A stretch of DNA of 64,000 nucleotides, taken from the NCBI RefSeq assembly GCF_022045235.1, contig NW_027266330.1:38192001-38256000 (forward strand), given 5' to 3'. Position numbers and translations under genes: made by a program. Each line of letters starts with the position of its first letter. The stretch's first letter is position 1. The notes under the pieces are model-generated. The model searched no databases, had not been told where the DNA came from, and worked only from the letters and a program-made list of their open reading frames with translations. The stretch is from Haliotis cracherodii. Its lineage: Eukaryota. This document shows, one piece after another, positions 3,742-50,393 of this stretch.

Positions 3742-6118
3742 ATGCAACCGGCGAAAGCAGTCGTCGCTGCTGTGCTCGTCCTTAACATAGCTGTTGGAAT
3801 CGCAGTTATTTGTGTTGTGGTGACTGTCGAGGGGGAACCCCGCAGGCCCCCTGCTGCAACACTCTGGAACAAAGCCGAGGAGTTGAAGAAGCAGATCGAC
3901 GAAGTACGAATATGAAATGAAATTAACTATTTGACCATCCAAATTGAAACATCAACTTGTTTTCTATTGTCAGTAGAAAATACATAGTACAGATTGCAGT
4001 GAAAAATGTACGAACTTACATCAATCAAGTGGATAAATATGGACAGAAAAAAAATATGCAATAGTCTGTAGATCACTTTGTTGATCCTTCACAAAAAATC
4101 CAAAATCTGAATGAATATATTGAAGGTGGTCATATATCATCATCGAGTTTTTTGGAGCATTTCTGGGACTACACATGTTTGTAACTAATTAAGCATGTCA
4201 TTTACTATTCTAACAATGAAGTAGAACATAAACTATATTACTGGTCATTGCAGATTTCTGATGATCATCAACAGACTCTGCACCATCCCCGTGGTAAGTA
4301 GGTTTTCTTGTGTTGTAGACATACACGTTTCGCTCGGTCTCCATTGAATCTTAAAAAAAATATAACAGAAATGTTCTTAAATCACAGTCCGATTTAGCAT
4401 TACACCACTGTCACATAATTTTTAAACTAGTATCACATGACTATGCTTTTCTCTTGTTTGTAAACAAACGCGTTTATTCTGAAATGCGAAGAGACTTCGT
4501 TATTATGAGGAACACAAAGCTTCAGAGTAAATACATACTCCTTCGTAAGGTGAATAAATGCTATGAGGCAGAGAGCATATATATGTAACTGTAGCAACAT
4601 AATAAAGAAGTTAACACTCTTTACATATTGTTTTGCATAACTTCGACAGCGAAGTTCATAACAATCTATCTTCCATGACAGCACGTGGAGTCCTTCAGCA
4701 AATGTAAACTATGCAAATGGAAATGGTTTTTCACGTTAAGGAATATTTACTCAGTGAAAGATAACCATTCGATCACATATGTTTAGCAAAATGTTCAGAA
4801 TTGTCAAAAATGAAAAAGTACGCTGTACTTTAAATGGACTGCGTAAGATGTGATAAATCATAACATGGCGCTGGCCTGTGACAGAGGTACAATGCTGGCC
4901 GCATGGATATCTGGGTAGAGTAGGGTAGGGGAGTGCTTCTCATATATGCAGTCCGAAAACAATTATTTCTTCCTTTGTCATAAGAATGTATACATATTAC
5001 CACCATGCGAAGCATTGCATAAATGGTGATCTGCTGTAATGAATTTAAATTAATACAGGTGAACAACAGACCACGTCACTAGAATATTGGAATACTCTGA
5101 AACCCGTCGCATTTCTGACAGGACTTAACTTCAGCGAAGGTATGATCTTCTCATCTTATCAGCATATATTTCAAATACCTCCAGCTTCATTTTGTTGCAG
5201 GGCAGTTGTATGTTAACAGTACTAGTGTTACCGGATATCAAATGTCTCAATCAAACAATATTACCATTTTAATAAGATTTCATGATAGAGTCGAACCCTG
5301 TTATCTCTAACAGTGCGGGATAAGAATTTATCATTACTGGAAAAAAGTGTTAATTGGTGAATTGGATTACGAGCGCATCAAGAGATATTTCGAGGGGCAG
5401 ATATTCGATACTTCATGTCAGTCACATTGCTATCGTCAGTCAACGAATATAAGAAAGTCGTTTGTGGTGCAGAGAGCTGGAATTGTAGTAACTTGTGTTT
5501 TTTAGTAACCCAGCCCCTTAAACGAGGTATTGGAGGCCCCACCCCTTGATACACACTGATCAGCGATTTGTTCGAAATAAAGTGAAAGTGATAACAAACC
5601 AAATATTCGTTTTCCTGAGAAACCCAACATACCCATGAATGCAATCGTATCGCACATATATTAATATGTTATTGTCATACCTCTACTTCTGTTTTACAGA
5701 TACACCTACAAACAGTGCAGTAAGGAATTGGATAGACTTCGTTGGATCAGTGCAATACTTGCACAAGAACATGGAGTATGAAATCGGAAGTGTTTCAATG
5801 CCAACCGCTGGAGTGTATGTCGTCTATTCCCATGTAAAATTTTACACAGAAAAAAATCATCGCGTTGATCCCGAGCTTGATTTCCATCACAGCATAACAC
5901 GATACAATGCCGTGTCGCAACAGACAGAGACTGTATCGGGGAACATCGTGTGTGAGAACAAGAACAATGTCATTGACGGAGCAAGTCTGGAATACTCCAG
6001 TGATATCCACACTTTGGTGCAGCTGAATGCTGGAGATGAGGTGATAGTAACTGTTTCGCATTTGGAACTGTTAAAGTCGGACAAGGATTGGCATTATTTT
6101 GGAGTCTATATGATTTAA
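3742..6118 (+). CDS. TNF superfamily ligand, paralog 1 (type II TM, ~233 aa)
   Basis: Exons 3742-3903, 4254-4293, 5059-5139, 5700-6118 with GT-AG introns in phases 0,1,1, giving 702 nt in frame. N-terminal TM VLVLNIAVGIAVICVVV. TNF homology domain motifs KPVAFL, W, GVYVVYSHVKF, QLNAGD, YFGVYMI. Confidence 0.92.
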
Positions 6119-6415
6119 ATTTTCTTTTCAAGGCAATCCAGTGGTTCTCAACGTTTTAAAATGAATTCAAATGGTGCATATTCCGTAGTTGCATTTAGAT
6201 GTGTCAAGGTTTGAAATGAAATTCAAAATACGTATGATGCCTAATGCTTTGAGATGCGTACATGAAGAAATATGGAACCAATGTGTATTTTCAAAGACAT
6301 GAATATACTGACACACATGAACATGCCCATTCGATTTTTTTGCTATGTTTGGCAAACTTGGGTCACAAGCCTGAAATGAAGTTGTTCTATATATTTAGAT
6401 GTGCGATATTTAAAC

Positions 6416-6474
6416 TTGAACATTTGGAACTGTTAAAGGCTTGGCATTATTTTGGAGCACACATTATAATTTGA
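6416..6474 (+). pseudogene. Duplicated terminal fragment of a TNF coding exon (HLELLKAWHYFGAHIII*)
   Basis: CATTTGGAACTGTTAAAG...TGGCATTATTTTGGAGCA repeats 6059-6104 with a 9-nt deletion. Confidence 0.75.
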
Positions 6475-46992: not shown

Positions 46993-49014
46993 GGATGTCA
47001 CTAACAGTGTCTCACTTTCGAGGAATGGTGACATATATGCTGTCTATAGAATTTACTCGGTATTTATAGGACTACGCTATGCATGCGCATTGATATACAG
47101 TCATGTGAAATCGATATCCTTTGTAAAGAAATGTAGGGAAAGCATAACAGTGTTGAAAACCTGTATTGATGAGCTCTTTTACCTTCGCTTGCAACACAAG
47201 TAAGCGGAAAAAAAATATTTCTGGTCATGCACTGGTAACATATTCCATATGCATACACCTGTGAATTTAATTCATGTATTGAAAAAACGTCATTAAATTT
47301 TATAATATAATGGAGAAGATCAATTTACTCAAGGGTATGTGAAGGTTATTTTATGAAAACACACTGCGACAGCAGTCACCTTATCACCACTCAAACACGG
47401 AGTCACGCCTTGTTAGTACACATTTGCTTTTGTAGTCTAAAGTCTGGCCCAGCGTTAACACAAATACTTTCTATCTGAAACACACTGCTTTACTGTGTCT
47501 CCGTTTCTTTAGTTTACATCCAGAATCCAGGTACAAATTAATAACTAAGAAGTTTTACATACATCCGATACAACTATCAAACAATGTAAATGAGATCTGT
47601 TTTCATTTTGTTTGGGAAATGGCACTGAGTCAGGATGGGAGAACATGTTAGGTTATTCTGTACTTCCTCAATAATTACTCCATTCTTGCAAGATGAGATC
47701 ACGTGTATCTAAAGTTGTCTATAGTTATGTCAGGAAAGTGTACTCTATAGCGCGTTGACGTCAGCTATAAACTTGTATGCTCTATTCGTTATCATCCGAC
47801 CTTTAACGACTGGCATACGAACACCGAATTACTATGTTTGTTGCATTGTGTCACGCTAAATTATGTGATATATTGAAATACTGCAACATACGATTACTTA
47901 ATACCTAAACGGCAATTTTAAAAGTATCATTGTTGTCCATGTAACGGGGTACGTTATAAACAGATATCCAACGTTGCGGACCCGACCGTGTAATACACTA
48001 GATCAGGGTTGAACAGATATAAAAAAACACACTGGTCCTTGTTACAGATATGTTTTATTTGAAGAAAGTTTAAGATTGTCGTCAACAATTGAAACGGCTG
48101 TTAATCCAAGACAATGTCCATACCAAAGACAAGACACGTTTAAAATCAAAATCTCCTAACTATGTCTCACGAACTATCTGGCGAGTTTGGGCGATAAAAT
48201 TATTTTTCAATCATGCTAAATATATATATGAATTAGATATAATCTACTTCTTACACACACACATGTATGTATAGCATAACACATTGAAATTGTTGCTTAA
48301 AGTTCACTGGAAATTATTTAACGATATGTGCAACGCATCTTAATGACTAGTGAAGTGGTAATAGGTTTTATCAACCAAGTATGTTTAATTGATTAAGATG
48401 ACAGTAGAGAAACTGTGAAATACATTACATTACATAACATACTGATGGTCAAACTTGTCGAATCTCATAAACCGAAGTTTCACATTCGTTTCAAATGCTG
48501 ACATATTTAAAAGCTAAATCATACACACAAATAATAATTTATTTGAAATATTCTGTCTAACAATACATGTATTATATTGTAGAAGATATATAAATGATAT
48601 AAAATTTAATGTGCTTGACACGAAGCAAGGAGGGACATCTAACGACGAAGTATGAATAAAGAGTCGGCTTATAGCCAGTTTGACATACATTCGTGTATGC
48701 ACACACGCCGAACTCAATTATATGTAGGACATTTGCTGGTAGACAGACATTAAAGGTATCATTTGCCTCGGAATGCATTATTAGCTTCCAAAGTGTAATT
48801 GTTCTTGCCTTTTTACAAACTACTCACACACAATTATTCACATTTGTGTTTGTGTCAGGGTATTAATTGCGACACAAAGCTTGATGGTTTCAAATTGTTA
48901 ACAATGTGCCATTTTCGTGTATTCCCAGAATCCATTTATAATGTATACATCACATGCACATGTTCATTAAACCTCCTTAGCCTCGACAACTGTAAAATTG
49001 CCAGTAGGGAACCA

Positions 49015-50393
49015 TCACAACAGGTATACTCCAAAATAATGCCAGTCCCTGTCATGTCTCAGTGGATTCATCCCTGATACTTTCACCATCAGCTGATCAC
49101 CAGCGTCCAGCTGCAACAATCCATGAACATCACTGGAGTACTCCAGACTTGCTCCATCAATGATGCTGTTTTTGTTCTCGCTGATGACATTCCTCAATAC
49201 TGTTTCTGCCTCTTGCATCAGTGCACTGTACCGTGTTATATTATGATGAAAATCAGACTCAGCATCGTCATGATTATTTCTTTCTGTGTAAAACTTGATG
49301 TGACTGTATAAGACATACACTCCAGTGGCGGGCACTGTGATGCTGCCATTCTTATACTTCATCCCGTTGTACAAAAGTTGTCTCCCAGGTCCGACAAAAG
49401 GTACCCAGTTTCTTAATGGTGTGTCTGTTAGGGTGCCATCTAAAGAATCAATATCAAAATGAGCAGAAAATATGAATAATAGATTTGTACAAACCTGACT
49501 ATCCAATGGTTCTGGCCATGGAGTAATCTGGTAAAGAAAGTAATTATAGAGAAACGTTCCAAATATATCTGACAGTGTCAATCTTAAAGTGATACCTGAT
49601 CCGACTGAATTTCTCCTTGTTTGCTGTATACTGTATAATTAATATATATATATATATATCTTCTATTTACACTCTATCTACACCGTTTTTGTAATATTCA
49701 ATCTTTAATTCAAAATATGAAGTTAGTTTACCATCAGTATGACTAAAGTCTAGTCCCGGAAAGTAGGCTATAGGCTTTAATAAATTGAGAAATTCTGCTG
49801 ATATGGTCGGTCTTTCTGCATCTGTAACAAATTCAAGAGAATTTTTTTCACAAACAGGGAGCGTGTCATTAAAATATGTTATCTTCACATTAATATCATT
49901 CCCACATGTACAACCTGTACAGCATTCTCTATAATGAAAACAGTTATCATTGCAACAGAACGTTTAACATTCTGGTGAACGTGTTTCTCGTTTTTCATTT
50001 TGGTGTATTCAACGCACTTGTCCGTGTAAGACTGGGGATAGCCATGGTTGTCACGTGTTCCATGTATATCTGCAACACATGACAGAATGGATAACAGTGT
50101 GATGTGCAGAATAAATAACAATAGACCAACAGTCCAGACACATGTACATGTACGTTACTGTTTATTCATTCCTTCTATTTATCATTTTCCTCCTCTCCAA
50201 TAGTACAATATTCATGAAATGTTATGAGTGAAACATACATACATGTACTTACATTGTCGATTTGTTCCTTTGTAAGCTGACCTTGTGATTGCTTTTCGGT
50301 TTGTCGTGACACCATTTGACAAATAACTGCAATTACTACAGCCATGTTCAAAATAAATATGGAAGCAAATCCAACTTTCATACGTTTGTTCAT
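49015..50393 (-). CDS. TNF superfamily ligand, paralog 6 (~235 aa)
   Basis: Exons 50393-50253, 50069-50018, 49821-49732, 49439-49015 with GT-AG introns, giving 708 nt. TM SIFILNMAVVIAVIC. THD motifs GVYVLYSHIKF, QLDAGD, WHYFGVYLL. Confidence 0.92.

Follow-up and report, generated by a model that had tools for sequence, protein, structure and literature searches.

Molluscan tumor necrosis factor superfamily (TNFSF) expansions are generally interpreted as an increase in the number of distinct signals, with trees built from the TNF domain alone. The cases closest to the one treated here include 65 to 67 TNF genes on one chromosome of Mercenaria mercenaria and 23 members in Crassostrea gigas, likewise tandem genes with a single TNF domain and mostly one membrane anchor; the passages of that article used here do not mention exon-limited homogenization, no dedicated term search having been made there (PMC8905726). 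Frequent independent tandem duplications are also described, in the parts consulted, for the tunicate TNFSF (PMC12843592), and the word "conversion" has 0 occurrences in that article and in a vertebrate survey (PMC11762692). Exon-level gene conversion among tandem cell-surface immune paralogues, of the kind proposed below, is described for CEA/CEACAM in the sections of PMC7042247 drawn on here, although these are receptors and adhesion proteins, not trimeric ligands, and one paralogue there escapes conversion in its mature-protein exons. In abalones, the TNF-alpha of Haliotis discus discus (ACF75368; De Zoysa et al. 2009), whose expression reportedly rises in gill exposed to pathogens (cited in bioRxiv 10.1101/2024.07.27.603686), and the TNF of H. 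diversicolor (E3UTM8) are described, in the material available to us, as single genes, whereas the 64,000-nucleotide stretch of the Haliotis cracherodii genome analyzed here (contig NW_027266330.1, C67 below, positions 38192001–38256000; hereafter, the window) holds six genes of an 11-gene array that has a sister cluster.

The window genes (g1–g6), together with four genes to the left (u1–u4) and one to the right (d1), form a tandem array of abalone TNFSF ligand genes extending from -68.5 kb to +72.6 kb in window coordinates, in which negative numbers lie left of the window (Table 1); the genome measures 1.18 Gb. We consider it likely that this array evolves through birth and loss of whole genes combined with gene conversion that is mostly confined to the TNF-domain exon. 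The array and its genes are already annotated by NCBI and, without the conversion result, would constitute an ordinary tandem array of the known molluscan kind; exon-limited concerted evolution was not found reported for TNF ligands, as a search of titles and abstract beginnings, with subscription journals and supplements outside its scope, returned no report of conversion or concerted evolution among them. A first-pass annotation of the window had proposed six intact paralogs with identical exon phases and one inversion, and both points stand. Each gene has 4 coding exons, GT-AG introns in phases 0, 1, 1 and an open frame without stops, the exons built by hand reproduce the NCBI H. cracherodii proteins exactly, and g1 lies on the plus strand with the other five on the minus strand, g4 being the inverted paralogue of g1. 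The phases 0, 1, 1 recur in u1–u4 and d1.

In the window, the evidence for conversion centers on g6. Its exon 4 contains a tract nearly identical to d1 that starts some 25 nt into the exon and stops just before the stop codon. Silent differences between g6 and d1 amount to 9 of 120 in exon 4 versus 25 of 37 in exons 1–3, their introns are 58–68% identical by global alignment, the same as in unrelated pairs, and the two genes differ at 9 positions of the exon-4 core. A second, membrane-anchor tract joins exon 1 of g6 to g5 and probably represents an older or shorter conversion event: silent differences between g5 and g6 number 4 of 26 in exon 1 versus 48 of 83 elsewhere (P = 2e-4). The control pair g5/d1 is uniformly saturated (P = 0.16 and 0.57; exon 4, 33 of 51), a maximum chi-square (max-chi) analysis of the g5/g6/d1 triplet gave P ≤ 0.0033, and the pair g2/u1 is also heterogeneous, with 9 of 31 silent differences in exon 1 versus 8 of 157 (P = 3e-4). 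As judged from its sequence, g6 is thus a mosaic gene of which only the membrane-anchor exon resembles g5. The first-pass annotation had paired g5 with g6 by their transmembrane exon; the likeness is real in exon 1 (79%), but the other exons are 54–69% identical, and the pair is a false one because the TNF-domain exon is homogenized with d1 and the likeness to g5 is confined to exon 1.

Phylogenetic analysis split the gene in the same manner, placing g6 exon 1 with g5 (96/80) and exon 4 with d1 (92/88). In approximately unbiased (AU) tests, the grouping g5+g6 was rejected for the TNF domain (p = 0.002), as was a clade of d1 orthologues (p = 0.026), and g6+d1 was rejected for exon 1 (p = 0.037). 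At the protein level, the TNF-domain heads of g6 and d1 from H. cracherodii and Haliotis rufescens group together, with the Haliotis rubra d1 outside. The mosaic is present in H. rufescens as well, which is difficult to reconcile with an assembly collapse of the exon-4 tract. These placements, and the position of g6 between g5 and d1, would also suit an origin of g6 and similar genes as one-time chimeras produced by unequal crossing-over or exon shuffling, with the 5' part from g5 and the 3' part from d1. A crossover, however, would bring introns and the 3' untranslated region (UTR) along, whereas the tract is bounded within exon 4, the g6/d1 introns are no more alike than those of unrelated pairs, no intronic or UTR homology continuous with the tract was seen, and exons 2 and 3 of g6 resemble neither g5 nor d1; a chimeric origin is therefore highly improbable.

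A different account holds that pure birth and death under strong purifying selection suffices, the heads being constrained and the stalks drifting. The ratio of nonsynonymous to synonymous rates (dN/dS) agrees with constraint on the heads, being 0.09–0.59 in exon 4 for the 37 of 45 pairs in which it could be computed (pairwise comparisons only) and often near 1 in the stalk where computable. Moreover, each of g1–g5 groups with its H. rufescens orthologue in at least one of two trees, and purifying selection with birth and death remains adequate for g1/g4 and g2/g3. It does not explain silent sites that are homogenized in a pair-specific manner, exon 4 being saturated in g5/d1 and not in g6/d1, nor the clustering of Haliotis asinina heads by species (see below), and it is already contradicted for g6/d1 and for the sister cluster; as a general account we regard it as very unlikely. 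Interlocus gene conversion is the likely process because the silent-site identity is pair-specific, which purifying selection would not produce, and because a single crossover would carry flanks.

Several results weigh against conversion as a general feature of the array. Of the five max-chi triplets, two gave P = 0.02 and one P = 0.053, all uncorrected. Silent-site heterogeneity was not significant for g1/g4 (P = 0.81 and 0.08) or g2/g3 (P = 0.12 and 0.56), and four further pairs showed none at P < 0.01. Exons 2 and 3 do not separate g5+g6 from g6+d1 (AU p = 0.30 and 0.52), the grouping of all g6 sequences was not rejected in the TNF domain (AU p = 0.15), the groups submitted to the AU tests were named after earlier trees were known, and the cross-species tests used proteins only.

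The same pattern recurs in the related cluster on contig C7, where the 200 kb scanned contained 14 TNF-domain exons of full length, one of them with a stop, together with 5 partial pieces, positions 33885001–33905000 (20 kb) lying outside the scan. Gene models were built for 5 of 7 proteins, P0043 and P0059 being left out for want of an exact model. In 9 of the 10 pairs, residue identity is 29–41% before the TNF-domain core versus 85–89% within it, and silent differences are 51–62% before the core versus 10–18% within (P ≤ 6e-5). Identity in the flanks mostly does not rise above the baseline of shuffled sequence (0.51), compared with 0.88–0.95 for the TNF-domain exon. Three H. asinina heads of the C7 type form one clade (97/90), and their N-termini fall into three cross-species groups; each partition rejects the grouping of the other (AU p = 2.5e-4, 9e-8, and 1e-6; trees of 17 of the 21 rows, with Hc59, Hr61, and the short Hr56 and Hr57 left out). 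Old stalk lineages on C7 share homogenized heads, and the effect is stronger there than in the window.

Under the conversion model, whole genes are duplicated and lost while interlocus gene conversion copies mostly the TNF-domain exon, the last exon of approximately 420 nt probably being the sole long stretch still similar enough to pair. The expected result would be a small number of head types (g1/4, g2/3/u1–u3, g5, g6/d1, u4, and the C7 type), each borne on several stalks and promoters. Conversion might alternatively be adaptive rather than a by-product of local homology, selection keeping the heads identical so that paralogues share a receptor and co-assemble. The same exon is homogenized in two clusters and at least two lineages, and the core trimer-axis positions (Y142, H144, D201, H203, W230, Y232, and Y236 in g3 numbering) are invariant in 10 close paralogues. 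Against this, exon length alone predicts where conversion persists, and the conservation of the pre-set interface positions does not exceed that of the domain as a whole (permutation P = 0.17), these positions being taken from TNF with an uncertain E-strand register. An adaptive cause is compatible with the conversion model, from which it differs solely in cause, and we consider it possible but rather unlikely.

The remaining pairs of the first-pass annotation were borne out, with exon identities of 72–93% for g1/g4 and 77–94% for g2/g3. That such pairs are uncollapsed alleles or assembly duplicates might be suspected from local duplications of 97–99% in the region (-23.4..-17.4 kb vs -4.3..+1.8 kb; 38.7–41.6 kb), but paired introns differ by 14–33% and each of g1–g6 has a one-to-one counterpart in H. 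rufescens, which refutes the suspicion and leaves it a negligible probability. Orthologues are closer than paralogues for g1, g4, and g5, and largely for g2 and g3; the rule fails for the TNF domain of g6/d1 and of the C7 genes. The TNF domain of g5 is the most divergent of the six, and this gene has counterparts in H. rufescens (P0042) and H. asinina (P0060/P0180).

The homologue search indicated an abalone-specific expansion: among the 7995 best candidates scored, all 45 matches at E ≤ 1e-5 were labeled Haliotis, and the abalone genes form a separate Haliotis-labeled clade, unlike the expansions of Mercenaria and Crassostrea. ACF75368 and E3UTM8 belong to the same subfamily as g2 and g3; u1 groups with ACF75368, and P0035 falls in the same clade. 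At least 60 PF00229 matches occur genome-wide. Further TNF-domain clusters were noted on C67 (34.2–34.7 Mb, 41.0 Mb, and 51.7–51.8 Mb), C31, and C48; the C48 cluster resembles the pair at 34.65 Mb and may be a haplotig.

Evolution by birth and death, as the first-pass annotation had it, is part of the explanation, given differing copy numbers between species and broken copies, but an incomplete one, some TNF-domain exons being homogenized between paralogues. Five g2-type genes are present in H. cracherodii, against a single such type found for each of H. asinina, H. rubra, and H. diversicolor; the g1/g4 type is represented once in H. asinina; and the one g6-type and one d1-type gene of H. cracherodii compare with three g6-type and three d1-type proteins on one H. 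rufescens contig, a fourth g6 type lying on another. These counts also weaken the case, since in the other species they depend on annotation, come from a search that scored the 7995 best candidates, and may include haplotype duplicates. The pseudogene remnant of the first-pass annotation corresponds to a broken membrane-anchor exon whose homology stops after about 11 codons, and no exons were found downstream of it; a second remnant derives from a TNF-domain exon (Table 1). The genes g2 and g3 lie in tandem units with duplicated 3' flanks (6854–8368 ~ 17770–19616; 8771–10475 ~ 22472–24175). Minisatellites with units of 33 bp and 34 bp occur at 7137–7838, 18047–19116, and 55211–56387; those with the 33-bp unit produce long open frames and serve as markers of the g2/g3 duplication units.

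The last exons of all six window genes score above the Pfam TNF (PF00229) cut-off (50.8–59.3 bits vs 23), and the competing C1q-domain identity was rejected, only g1 scoring against that profile (17.5 bits vs a cut-off of 23.7). Each protein carries one N-terminal hydrophobic segment, at residues 7–25 (best 19-residue window; mean hydropathy 2.3–3.0 across the six), preceded by a cytoplasmic tail of only about 6 residues; after it come a helical stalk, the short and conserved NLLKP helix, and finally the TNF domain. This order predicts a type II topology, with the reservation that hydropathy does not separate an anchor from a cleaved signal. The AlphaFold2 model of g3, computed from a 128-sequence alignment that replaced a 14-sequence one (predicted local distance difference test [pLDDT] 50.5), has a pLDDT of 85.4, a helix at residues 2–31, and the TNF jelly-roll fold (Z 19.1), a fold common to vertebrate TNF, TL1A, RANKL, and TRAIL. 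It superimposes on RANKL (4e4d) at Z 19.1 with a root-mean-square deviation (rmsd) of 2.5 Å over 148 residues, on RANKL and TL1A at 2.2–2.5 Å over 142–148 residues, and on RANKL, TL1A, TRAIL, and TNF at tied Z-scores of 18–19. In phmmer searches against vertebrate ligands, TNF came first, barely above RANKL (30 vs 28 bits), and identities are 18–26%; with the Z-scores tied, no single vertebrate ligand stands out as the orthologue. Strand A is encoded by exon 3 and all other TNF-domain strands by exon 4, and it is a trait of the superfamily that most of the TNF domain lies in the last exon. Tyr is kept at the positions that we take to align with TNF Y59 and Y151, and Asp and His occupy those presumably corresponding to TNF Tyr119 and Gly121 in the 10 close paralogues.

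The first-pass annotation had suggested that subfamilies differ in surface chemistry. This holds insofar as, among the 10 close paralogues, the net charge of the TNF domain spans -9 to +2, and four representatives of the subfamilies share 42% identity in the AA'', DE, and GH loops, compared with 58% for the whole domain, but the pairwise dN/dS values given above show no sign of positive selection. Basic sites (RK, KK, KR, or RR) are present in the stalk of five of the six genes. From what is known of the family, the products would be membrane-anchored type II ligands that trimerize via the TNF domain and signal through TNF receptors, and they may be shed at the basic stalk sites. The divergent member u4 has a basic TNF domain that lacks several residues invariant in the others (Y142, D201, W230, and Y236, g3 numbering), and has an orthologue in H. 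rufescens.

The claim of more promoter modules than genes appears to fit what was found: repeated noncoding modules outnumber the two g2-type genes of the window, which contains 3 copies of module B, 5 full copies and one fragment of module A, and 2 proximal modules. The surplus reflects two promoters per duplicated unit, some of them decaying, and not solely lost genes; the extra modules are proximal and distal first exons, two of which are linked to coding exons in contigs from RNA-like runs. Modules A and B were also considered as dispersed repeats and rejected as such, 9 of 9 and 5 of 6 genome matches, respectively, lying inside the array (the search skips common words).

Three module types can be distinguished. 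Type I consists of GGGAAATCCC followed about 70 nt on by TATAAATAG and precedes the first exon of g1 at -2.8 kb; this exon and its kB-TATA promoter lie 2.6–2.8 kb left of the window, the N-termini of NCBI isoforms P0031 and P0014 mapping to -2650..-2590. The module recurs at -52.0 kb (before u2), at -42.3 kb, and at -21.9 kb, where the kB site is missing and the copy serves no gene body; three promoter copies retain GGGAAATCCC plus TATA. From what is known of the family, g1 and u2 would be NF-kB inducible. Two observations speak against a wider role: no enrichment of kB-type sites is evident beyond the conserved copies (24 strand hits, many of them palindromic double counts, vs 9.1 expected in 214 kb), and the kB-TATA module was not found for g2–g6; for g4–g6, no promoter was identified. 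A kB-like site at -52.3 kb was rejected as a promoter, being part of a short interspersed element (SINE).

Type II, a proximal TATA with a first exon, stands before g3, u3, g2, and u2. Loose ends of contigs assembled from sequencing runs map to the g3 and u3 copies, that of a run X1 contig to the g3 proximal first exon with 0 mismatches; these runs come from related animals, their RNA status is the guess of the tool, the share of probe words is ≤0.29, and the contigs may derive from close paralogues. A first mapping of the runs was flooded by a SINE and yielded one useful joint. Type III is distal, with modules B and A around a short exon, and three sets occur in the window, two of them with weak or lost donors; the set near g1 sits within that gene's first intron in antisense orientation, directed toward u1. 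A run X12 contig connects a Type III homologue at -38.9 kb with a membrane-anchor exon, and the letters between the joints point to a u3 orthologue, the gene assignment being inferred from equal contig depth. If u3 uses this first exon in H. cracherodii, u2 lies antisense within the first intron of u3, and the 5' regions of g1 and u1 may overlap likewise. In every gene, the membrane-anchor exon is probably preceded by a further 5' exon, as seen for g3 in contigs of RNA-like runs and for g1 in NCBI isoforms.

The splice models agree with those of NCBI, and RNA-like runs support those of the g3 type: contigs from 3 of 3 such runs, but from 0 of 1 DNA-like run, show the joints of coding introns 1 and 3, and 1 of 3 RNA-like runs shows the joint of intron 2, via a paralogue. 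For the g2 type, the last-intron joint is seen in 4 of 4 RNA-like runs. Isoforms that skip exon 3 are listed by NCBI for g2 and g6, three g6-type genes of H. rufescens, and one d1-type gene of H. rubra (P0033, P0182, P0037–P0039, and P0036); no exon-3-skipping joint was found in 3 RNA-like runs. Such isoforms would lack strand A, recalling deltaBAFF. At 23406–23905, a run X12 contig joins the membrane-anchor exon directly to exon 3, and this skip of exon 2 would shift the frame; P0020 and P0021 of H. asinina are NCBI isoforms with an apparent donor inside the membrane-anchor exon and with most of the anchor lost.

Mobile elements were also noted in and around the array. A Tc1/mariner-like element occupies window positions 1–1263, starting at -263 (DDE_3 match at 758–1054), and copies 97% identical lie at -19457..-17930 and -40671..-39144, each in a g1-type upstream region. 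An 11.4-kb element with 59-bp terminal inverted repeats is present in two copies of 95–98% identity (-17329..-5911 and +73985..+86236), the left one separating the two parts of a duplicated g1 promoter region (6 kb, 98%). A local tandem duplication of 98–99% surrounds masked stretches at 38742–41633, upstream of g4; a weak, below-cut-off match to a Mutator-like transposase lies in the 5' intron of g3 (24275–24703); and a retroelement remnant with RNase H is found at 20986–21420. Between g6 and d1, an exon with a neurexophilin domain (61632–62378, plus strand) likely belongs to an NXPE-type gene.

Table 1. Array genes, putative conversion tracts, remnants, and promoter modules, in window coordinates unless stated otherwise
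Feature	Position	Strand	Description
g1	3742-6118	+	233 aa; exons 3742-3903, 4254-4293, 5059-5139, 5700-6118; = P0032; H. rufescens orthologue P0034
g2	10356-8996	-	239 aa; exons 10356-10213, 10053-9993, 9732-9643, 9420-8996; = P0002; H. rufescens P0016
g3	24050-22697	-	238 aa; exons 24050-23907, 23699-23639, 23408-23319, 23118-22697; = P0001
g4	36774-34242	-	237 aa; exons 36774-36613, 36280-36241, 36001-35912, 34663-34242; = P0012; H. rufescens P0030
g5	45626-43772	-	246 aa; exons 45626-45468, 45134-45080, 44621-44529, 44205-43772; = P0040
g6	50393-49015	-	235 aa, mosaic by sequence; exons 50393-50253, 50069-50018, 49821-49732, 49439-49015; = P0025
u4	-68.5 kb (C67:38123495-38125182)		divergent member, P0065
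u3	about -59 kb		outside window, left
u2	about -45 kb	+	outside window, left
u1	about -26 kb		outside window, left
d1	+69 to +72.6 kb		outside window, right
g6 exon-4 tract	49021-49413	-	393 bp, 96.2% identical to d1 (window +68733-69125); flanks at background
g6 membrane-anchor tract	50274-50380	-	84% identical to g5 45507-45613; putative older or shorter conversion tract
Pseudogene remnant	16086-16173	-	acceptor and start of g2/g3/u2-type membrane-anchor exon; ATG -> AAG
TNF-domain remnant	6406-6462	+	3' end of g1/g4-type TNF-domain exon, directly before N run
g3 proximal promoter	25559-25200	-	TATA 25422; first noncoding exon ending near GTAAG donor ~25218; homologue upstream of u3
g2 proximal promoter-like module	11899-11612	-	TATA 11799; homologous to g3 module (E 4e-22); donor looks degenerate
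Distal module, g3	32497-29811	-	B 32497-32018; TATA 32016; exon-like 32022-31839, GTTAG donor; A 31483-31335, 30050-29811
Distal module, g2	15189-14057	-	B 15189-14882; A 14817-14562; exon-like 14187-14057 (match weak, non-GT donor)
Distal module near g1	2449-1302	-	B 2149-1701; exon-like 1726-1587, GTAAG donor; A 1559-1302; inverted A 2191-2449 (+)

A TNF domain with its own history in two clusters means that trees built from this domain alone misplace orthologues and underestimate the age of paralogues; the approximately 24 intact genes of the clade reduce to about six head types. Quantitative PCR of "abalone TNF-alpha" with last-exon primers would likely detect more than one gene, the exon-4 identity of u1 and g2 being 96%. 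Between paralogues with copied heads, the differences likely concern anchor and control, not the signal sent; mixed trimers between those with near-identical heads, such as g6 and d1, are plausible, and g6/d1 offers a natural pair with the same head and different stalks for probing the role of the TNF stalk. BAFF/APRIL heterotrimers and the inhibitory splice form deltaBAFF, as presented in the parts of PMC3880999 consulted, provide precedents for a broader proposal, which we advance as a speculation that is unlikely to hold: repeated copying of the head exon would keep old paralogues equivalent in signaling, so that one head on many stalks would share a receptor and form mixed trimers, with the exon-3-skipping forms acting as deltaBAFF-like inhibitors. 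If this were true, the cytokine diversity of abalones would stem from display, shedding, and timing and not from receptor specificity.

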